This document shows positions 1 to 707 of a stretch of 707 nucleotides of DNA, one piece after another (the first letter of the stretch is position 1; the number at the start of each line of letters is the position of its first letter). Below the pieces are notes generated by a model. The model saw only the letters and a program-made list of their open reading frames with translations. It searched no databases and had not been told where the DNA came from. Location: the NCBI RefSeq assembly GCF_003334335.1, contig NZ_QOWQ01000154.1; one strand, 5' to 3'. The stretch is from Escherichia coli. Its GTDB lineage: Bacteria > Pseudomonadota > Gammaproteobacteria > Enterobacterales > Enterobacteriaceae. A program made the translations under genes and the position numbers.

Positions 1-707
1 CAGCAGATGACGGTGAACTACCATATCCGCGGTCGCATCATCCAGGTGCCGTCAAACTATGACCCGGAAAAACGCACGTACAGTGGTATCTGGGACGGCA
101 GTCTGAAACCGGCATACAGCAACAACCCGGCCTGGTGTCTGTGGGACATGCTGACTCACCCGCGCTACGGCATGGGAAAACGTCTGGGGGCGGCGGATGT
201 GGACAAGTGGGCGCTGTATGCCATCGGGCAGTACTGCGACCAGACGGTCCCGGATGGTTTCGGGGGCACAGAGCCGCGGATGACCTTTAATGCGTACCTG
301 GCACAACAGCGTAAGGCGTGGGACGTTCTCAGTGATTTCTGCTCGGCGATGCGCTGTATGCCGGTATGGAACGGCCAGACGCTGACGTTCGTTCAGGACC
401 GCACGTCGGATGTGGTGTGGCCGTACACCAACAGCGATGTGGTGGTGGATGATAACGGCGTGGGGTTCCGCTACAGCTTCAGTGCCCTGAAGGACCGGCA
501 CACGGCGGTGGAGGTGAATTACACCGACCCGCAGAACGGCTGGCAGACCTCCACGGAACTGGTGGAAGACCCGGAAGCCATACTGCGCTACGGACGCAAC
601 CTGCTGAAGATGGACGCGTTCGGCTGTACCAGCCGCGGTCAGGCCCACCGTGCCGGGCTGTGGGTGATAAAGACCGAACTGCTGGAAACGCAGACGGTGG
701 ATTTCAC
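1..707 (+). CDS. J: Internal fragment (5' and 3' partial) of a lambdoid phage tail tip attachment / host specificity protein J; central region of a roughly 1100-aa protein, not the C-terminal receptor-binding end
   Basis: Seen in sequence: frame 1 is open across the full window (235 codons, no TAA/TAG/TGA) and continues past both edges. The translation contains conserved blocks I recognise from lambda gpJ-family proteins: 'YSGIWDG..KPAYSNN.AWCLWDMLTHPRYGMGKRLGAADVDKWALY.IGQYCDQ.VPDGFGGTEPR', 'QRKAWDVLSDFCSAMRCMPVWNGQTLTFVQDR', 'FRYSFSALKDRH.AVEVN' and 'KMDAFGCTSRGQAHRAGLW.IKTELLETQTVDF'. Composition is GC-rich (about 53-57% in the two 60-base lines I counted). Established knowledge: lambda J encodes the central tail fibre / tip attachment protein. 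The family assignment is from memory, not a database search. Confidence 0.9.
85..177 (+). other. Conserved motif block 'GIWDGSLKPAYSNNPAWCLWDMLTHPRYGMG' within the J CDS; consistent with the conserved phage tail protein domain (Pfam Phage-tail_3-like) found in gpJ-type proteins
   Basis: Seen in sequence: codons 29-59 of frame 1 encode this Trp/aromatic-rich block. Established knowledge / recollection: a near-identical block occurs in lambda gpJ and its homologues. The domain-family name is recalled, not computed, and the boundaries are approximate. Confidence 0.55.

Follow-up and report, generated by a model that had tools for sequence, protein, structure and literature searches.

Identity and reading frame of the fragment

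The window, meaning the whole 707-base stretch of DNA that was analyzed, has a G+C content of 60.5%, and 79% of its third codon positions are G or C. Frame +1 is stop-free over all 235 codons, while each of the other five frames is interrupted by between 1 and 11 stops. Both the start codon and the stop codon are absent from the window's +1 frame, which encodes part of J, the central tail fibre or tail-tip attachment protein of the phage. The features are as follows.

1..707, plus strand: internal fragment of the gene for a lambda-type tail tip / host specificity protein J, running over codons 230-464 plus 2 bases of codon 465
304..705, plus strand: part of a Phage-tail_3 (PF13550) domain, identified by hmmscan against Pfam-A with an i-Evalue of 1.4e-29
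403..403, plus strand: the sole difference from Escherichia phage PhiR5_1, A versus C, giving codon 135 as ACG (Thr) versus CCG (Pro)

The resemblance to J is well beyond chance, and several profile libraries give the assignment. NCBIfam NF049904 (lambda_TipJ) aligns window residues 1-235 with positions 230-464 of its 1163 (E = 3.5e-169), at a score of 564.6 bits that has to be read against a curated whole-protein cut-off of 1950 bits, the window being only 235 of about 1160 residues. The full-length J proteins of PhiR5_1 and lambda both score above that cut-off, at 2312.5 and 2290.5 bits. PHROG 31, named central tail fiber J, matches with E = 9e-154, and phmmer against the solved gpJ chains (8iyk, 8iyl, 8k35, 8xcg, 8xci and 9e7m) again places the window at residues 230-464 with E of about 1e-137. 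The Phage-tail_3 match takes in window residues 102-235 at model positions 2-131 of 164, and the domain continues past the 3′ end of the window. The peptide blocks that the first-pass annotation had compared with lambda are all found in the translation: PEKRTY (nt 64-81), GSLKPAYSNNPAW (nt 97-135) and DPQNGWQTSTELVEDPEAILRYGRNLLKMDAFGC (nt 526-627). We have very little doubt that the window is an ordinary internal piece of the tail-tip protein J gene of a common, non-lambda lambdoid phage or prophage of Escherichia. This statement covers the window without flanks; the integrity of the J gene, its receptor-binding domain and its phage or prophage context lie outside the sequence analyzed.

On the minus strand, a 198-aa open reading frame shares the codon register of J over 52-648. 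It stays open only because the sense strand makes almost no use of the codons TTA, CTA and TCA (the lone TCA is at nt 52 in the window and at nt 244 in lambda), and as an antisense gene it is rejected as an artefact of this codon bias. Rfam covariance models gave no match up to E = 1 on either strand of the window.

Divergence from lambda

Lambda gpJ (NP_040600.1; PDB 8IYK, 8IYL, 8K35, 8XCG, 8XCI and 9E7M) belongs to the same protein family as the window. Within the lambda reference region used for alignment (NC_001416, 14000-21500), the window aligns without gaps to 16192-16897, starting exactly at J codon 230. BLAST counts 573 of 707 identical bases (81.0%, E = 0) by introducing a compensating gap pair, and the ungapped in-frame count is 570 of 707 (80.6%). 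The translations are identical at 193 of 235 residues (82.1%), also gap-free, and the approximately 137 nucleotide mismatches are distributed over the whole window. The first-pass annotation had read the sequence as a diverged lambdoid J allele rather than lambda itself, and this reading is supported by 81% nucleotide and 82% amino acid identity. It had named alignment to the J region of NC_001416 as the check, with about 80-95% identity to indicate a distinct prophage and about 100% to indicate lambda; the alignment was run, and 81.0% lies inside the former bracket. The lambda peptides that it had given were also correct, since gpJ has PQTRQY and GTFKPAYSNNMAW at the same positions. Its third block is indeed more divergent in lambda, where gpJ reads DPNNGWETATELVEDTQAIARYGRNVTKMDAFGC and 8 of 34 residues differ. 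Other long blocks, for example AWCLWDMLTHPRYGMGKRLGAADVDKWALY and QRKAWDVLSDFCSAMRCMPVWNGQTLTFVQDR, are fully conserved between the window and lambda gpJ.

The differences from lambda number 31, 21 and 84 at codon positions 1, 2 and 3, and the differing codons comprise 61 synonymous and 42 non-synonymous changes. By the Nei-Gojobori method, dN is 0.114 and dS is 0.81. The same pattern is found at shorter range, with third positions accounting for 63 of the 84 variable sites among 85 close relatives and for 15 of 16 among the six closest sequences compared. Because substitutions are mostly at third positions and dN/dS versus lambda is 0.14, the J fragment codes for protein and is under purifying selection. 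The 19% DNA divergence from lambda and a dS of about 0.8 mark the allele lineage as old.

Synonymous divergence from lambda is uneven along the window, with pS of about 0.27 over codons 101-160 (nt 301-480) and about 0.75-0.78 over codons 161-220 (nt 481-660), and a 40-nt stretch at about nt 335-374 is unchanged between the two sequences. Old recombination between allele groups could produce this unevenness and the unchanged stretch, as could local constraint.

Closest relatives and the allele group

Escherichia phage PhiR5_1 comes closest among 50,697 phage records, being identical at 706 of 707 bases (99.9%). Other PhiR phages are at 99.3-99.7%, followed by ASU11, CP-1639 and many Stx1a-, Stx2a- and Stx2c-converting phages at 96-98%. 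Every phage match falls under a feature named host specificity or tail tip protein J, and those at 96-99.9% include complete temperate phage genomes of about 50 kb. A chromosomal prophage of E. coli DETEC-S792 is identical at 705 of 707 bases (99.7%). Its J protein (WP_271290583.1) and that of PhiR5_1 (PV340545.1, XSB41336.1) have the same codon register, the window starting at codon 230 of each. Phages with PhiR names, such as PhiR68.2, are in a panel tested on E. coli in a preprint whose text does not mention their J alleles (10.1101/2025.11.03.685801).

The first-pass annotation had taken related J variants to be common in E. coli, Shigella and Salmonella prophages, and for E. coli this is borne out: a match is present in 4,446 of 5,426 complete genomes, and J-like places per genome number 2 at the median and 14 at most in the genomes searched. 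Taking the best place in each, identity is at least 95% in 1,857 records and 80-90% in 2,593, with only 31 records between. Phage identities in a more sensitive search are also bimodal, forming a group at 94-99.9% and then jumping to 80-81.5%, where lambda, 434, mEp460, ev207 and O276 are found; J of Salmonella Gifsy-2 is more distant, at 75% to the window. Because the identities are bimodal, we place the window in a J allele group that is distinct and very common, and the window is not a slightly mutated lambda. An allele-specific 30-mer at window positions 6-35 has 11 differences from lambda and is invariant in 85 relatives; it occurs also in Escherichia albertii and in two gut metagenome-assembled genomes (MAGs) labelled Clostridiales and Collinsella.

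The allele group is carried by PhiR5_1-like temperate phages, by many E. coli prophages and by long-tailed Stx1- and Stx2-converting phages. J of the last of these (for example Stx1_14744, LC567821, and Stx2a_F349, AP012530) matches at 96-98% of nucleotides across the entire window and differs at a few dozen mostly synonymous sites. The window carries no information on stx in its source.

No 100% match was found among the phage collection, the 5,426 complete E. coli genomes and the 80 best IMG/VR loci. The single base separating the window from PhiR5_1 is non-synonymous, with Thr in the window at codon 135 and Pro in the phage. Lambda, too, has Pro at the corresponding gpJ position, 364. The A variant at nt 403 is found also in E. 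coli JNEC-KY204 and in IMG/VR contigs, and the 85 close relatives divide into 79 with C, 5 with A and 1 with T. The A is a naturally occurring minority polymorphism, not necessarily an error.

Gene neighborhood in relatives

In PhiR5_1 and in the prophages of DETEC-S792 and JNEC-KY204, the gene order is that of the canonical tail module: tape measure, M, L, K, I and J, then lom or a side-fibre gene. Each of the three has a feature of its own. In PhiR5_1, the tape measure gene H (145-2717 of the region extracted) is annotated as two abutting coding sequences, 145-2478 and 2478-2717, which suggests a frameshift, a sequencing error or a programmed split. In DETEC-S792 (NZ_CP116067.1), the prophage tail operon contains a full porin gene annotated as ompC (1581-2744 of the region extracted). 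It is flanked by the M-like tail gene and L and lies shortly upstream of the J allele that matches the window at 99.7%. In JNEC-KY204, J is intact but the side tail fibre gene that follows it is annotated in pseudogene fragments (9657-10532 of the region extracted), and because that gene is broken in this way the prophage is at least partly decayed.

Alternative sources of the sequence

Lambda DNA, present as laboratory control, sequencing spike-in or contaminant, would supply a gene that is homologous to and colinear with this one, and lambda does turn up in unrelated records, as in one named Campylobacter phage CJLB-4 that is 99.98% identical to lambda over 5.9 kb. The window, however, has 137 mismatches in 707 bases, and its 81% identity is far from the near-identity (about 99-100%) of lambda-level sequence. 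Lambda-type records, namely lambda, 434, ev207 and CJLB-4, are all at 80-81.5% to the window, whereas phages other than lambda match it at 99.9%. Some 137 mismatches are far beyond sequencing error, and spike-in or contaminant lambda DNA is therefore excluded; we give lambda itself a vanishingly small probability. We put an F-type tailocin, a phage-tail-like bacteriocin rather than a phage, at the same negligible level. The F2-pyocin tail fibre protein is clearly homologous over the same region (E = 1.8e-69), but its 237 bits are far below the 460 bits of lambda gpJ, and the complete genomes of temperate phages, about 50 kb in size, match this DNA at 96-99.9%.

A different sort of alternative is that this J copy is a relic in a decayed, non-inducible prophage remnant and not a working gene. 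Many lambdoid prophages are defective, which is a general reason to consider it, and the multiplicity of J-like places in E. coli genomes (the median of 2 and maximum of 14 given above) and the pseudogenised side-fibre gene adjoining J in JNEC-KY204 point the same way. Against it, the window maintains 235 codons without a stop or frameshift, it is one base from J of PhiR5_1, a phage recorded with E. coli C as host, and variation among close relatives is overwhelmingly synonymous. On balance we consider a relic unlikely, while giving it far more weight than either lambda or a tailocin. It bears only on the state of the host element, and the identification as a diverged lambdoid J allele is unaffected. 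The value of that identification is in quality control, in that the sequence ought to be regarded as true Escherichia prophage or phage DNA and not as lambda control. It adds nothing new about the biology; the J allele group is already known, with hundreds of phage genomes on deposit and thousands of those of E. coli carrying it, and the encoded protein region already has solved structures in the lambda homologue.

Expected place in the tail tip

In lambda, the domain order of gpJ is HDII-ins1 (with ins2), HDII, then HDIV with HDIII inserted in it (PMC11101478). Strand beta13 of the HDII-insertion is at residues 216-223, and strand beta24 of HDIV is at 477-482, just before the inserted beta-sandwich at 483-569 (PMC10721106). 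Residues 230-464 fall after the HDII-insertion and before beta24 of HDIV, so that, going by the residue ranges in the text of these papers rather than by coordinates, the window would encode part of the hub-domain core of the J trimer, namely HDII, HDIII and the first part of HDIV. The hub domains together with gpL form a closed cone under the gpM ring, with gpI held by beta-sheet augmentation (PMC10721106, PMC11101478) and contacting HDII of gpJ (PMC10721106). When the distal receptor-binding domain binds LamB, the hub domains rotate outward and the gpI plug is released (PMC10721106, PMC11101478), the hub domains opening as rigid bodies (PMC11101478).

On grounds of homology, the segment of J encoded by the window should have the structural role of its lambda counterpart. 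This core would, with gpL, seal the tail tube at its end below the gpM ring, and it would hold the gpI plug. On engagement of a receptor by the distal receptor-binding domain, the core would be expected to swing out as a rigid body, so that the channel opens for DNA.

Which receptor that might be is a matter for the C-terminal receptor-binding domain, which is outside the window, the fibre and receptor-binding parts lying beyond residue 800. Over most of its first 500 residues, J of PhiR5_1 (1157 aa) is 66-88% identical to lambda, but identity falls to only 18-38% near residues 800-900 and to 30-54% in the final 150. Because these distal regions are only 18-54% identical to lambda, the receptor of a PhiR5_1-like J need not be LamB.

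A repeated word in the J gene

BLAST self-hits and a repeat search find the word GCGCTGTATGCC at 211-222 and again at 351-362, making a 12-bp direct repeat. Its reverse complement occurs within ACCGGCATACAGC at 108-120, which forms a 13-bp perfect inverted repeat with 353-365. The three copies share one core, and the word is present in lambda too. In shuffles that keep the protein and codon usage, three copies of a 10-mer are rare, at 0.2-0.4% (for instance, 6 in 3000 trials), and 1.5% contain an inverted repeat of 13 nt or more. One could ask if the word has a function in DNA or mRNA, for example as a long-range stem or as a binding site for a protein, common to lambda and to J alleles of the EHEC type, rather than being a coincidence of conserved peptide motifs. 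The three copies are in different reading frames inside the conserved peptides KPAYS, ALYA and RCMPV. In Gifsy-2 J each copy is changed, without compensation; copies of the word are absent from J of phi80 and phiES15; and the RNA fold of 90-385 is no stabler than that of shuffled sequences (z = -0.49). A nucleotide-level element is rejected here, since more distant J genes do not conserve the word and its three copies are probably due to chance; we regard a functional role as highly unlikely.

Database records with probably misplaced J genes

Two kinds of record encountered in these searches have labels that seem not to fit their J genes. The CJLB-4 record (MW057783.1, 13112-19817), deposited as a phage of C. 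jejuni from poultry faeces with a genome of 48,361 bp, has 0 mismatches and 1 gap versus lambda over L-K-I-J-lom. To judge from this alignment, the record is likely to be lambda itself, a case of lambda contamination. The two gut MAGs mentioned above, a "Clostridiales bacterium" (SFGJ01000116.1) and a "Collinsella sp." (JAIJJM010000066.1), have the Escherichia prophage J gene at 99% identity; its presence in these Gram-positive genomes is most likely due to mis-binned contigs. In the Clostridiales contig, the stretch matching window nt 83-150 occurs twice in tandem, with window 1-150 aligned to 1675-1824 and window 83-707 aligned to 1822-2446, an arrangement that suggests a chimeric assembly of two J copies.
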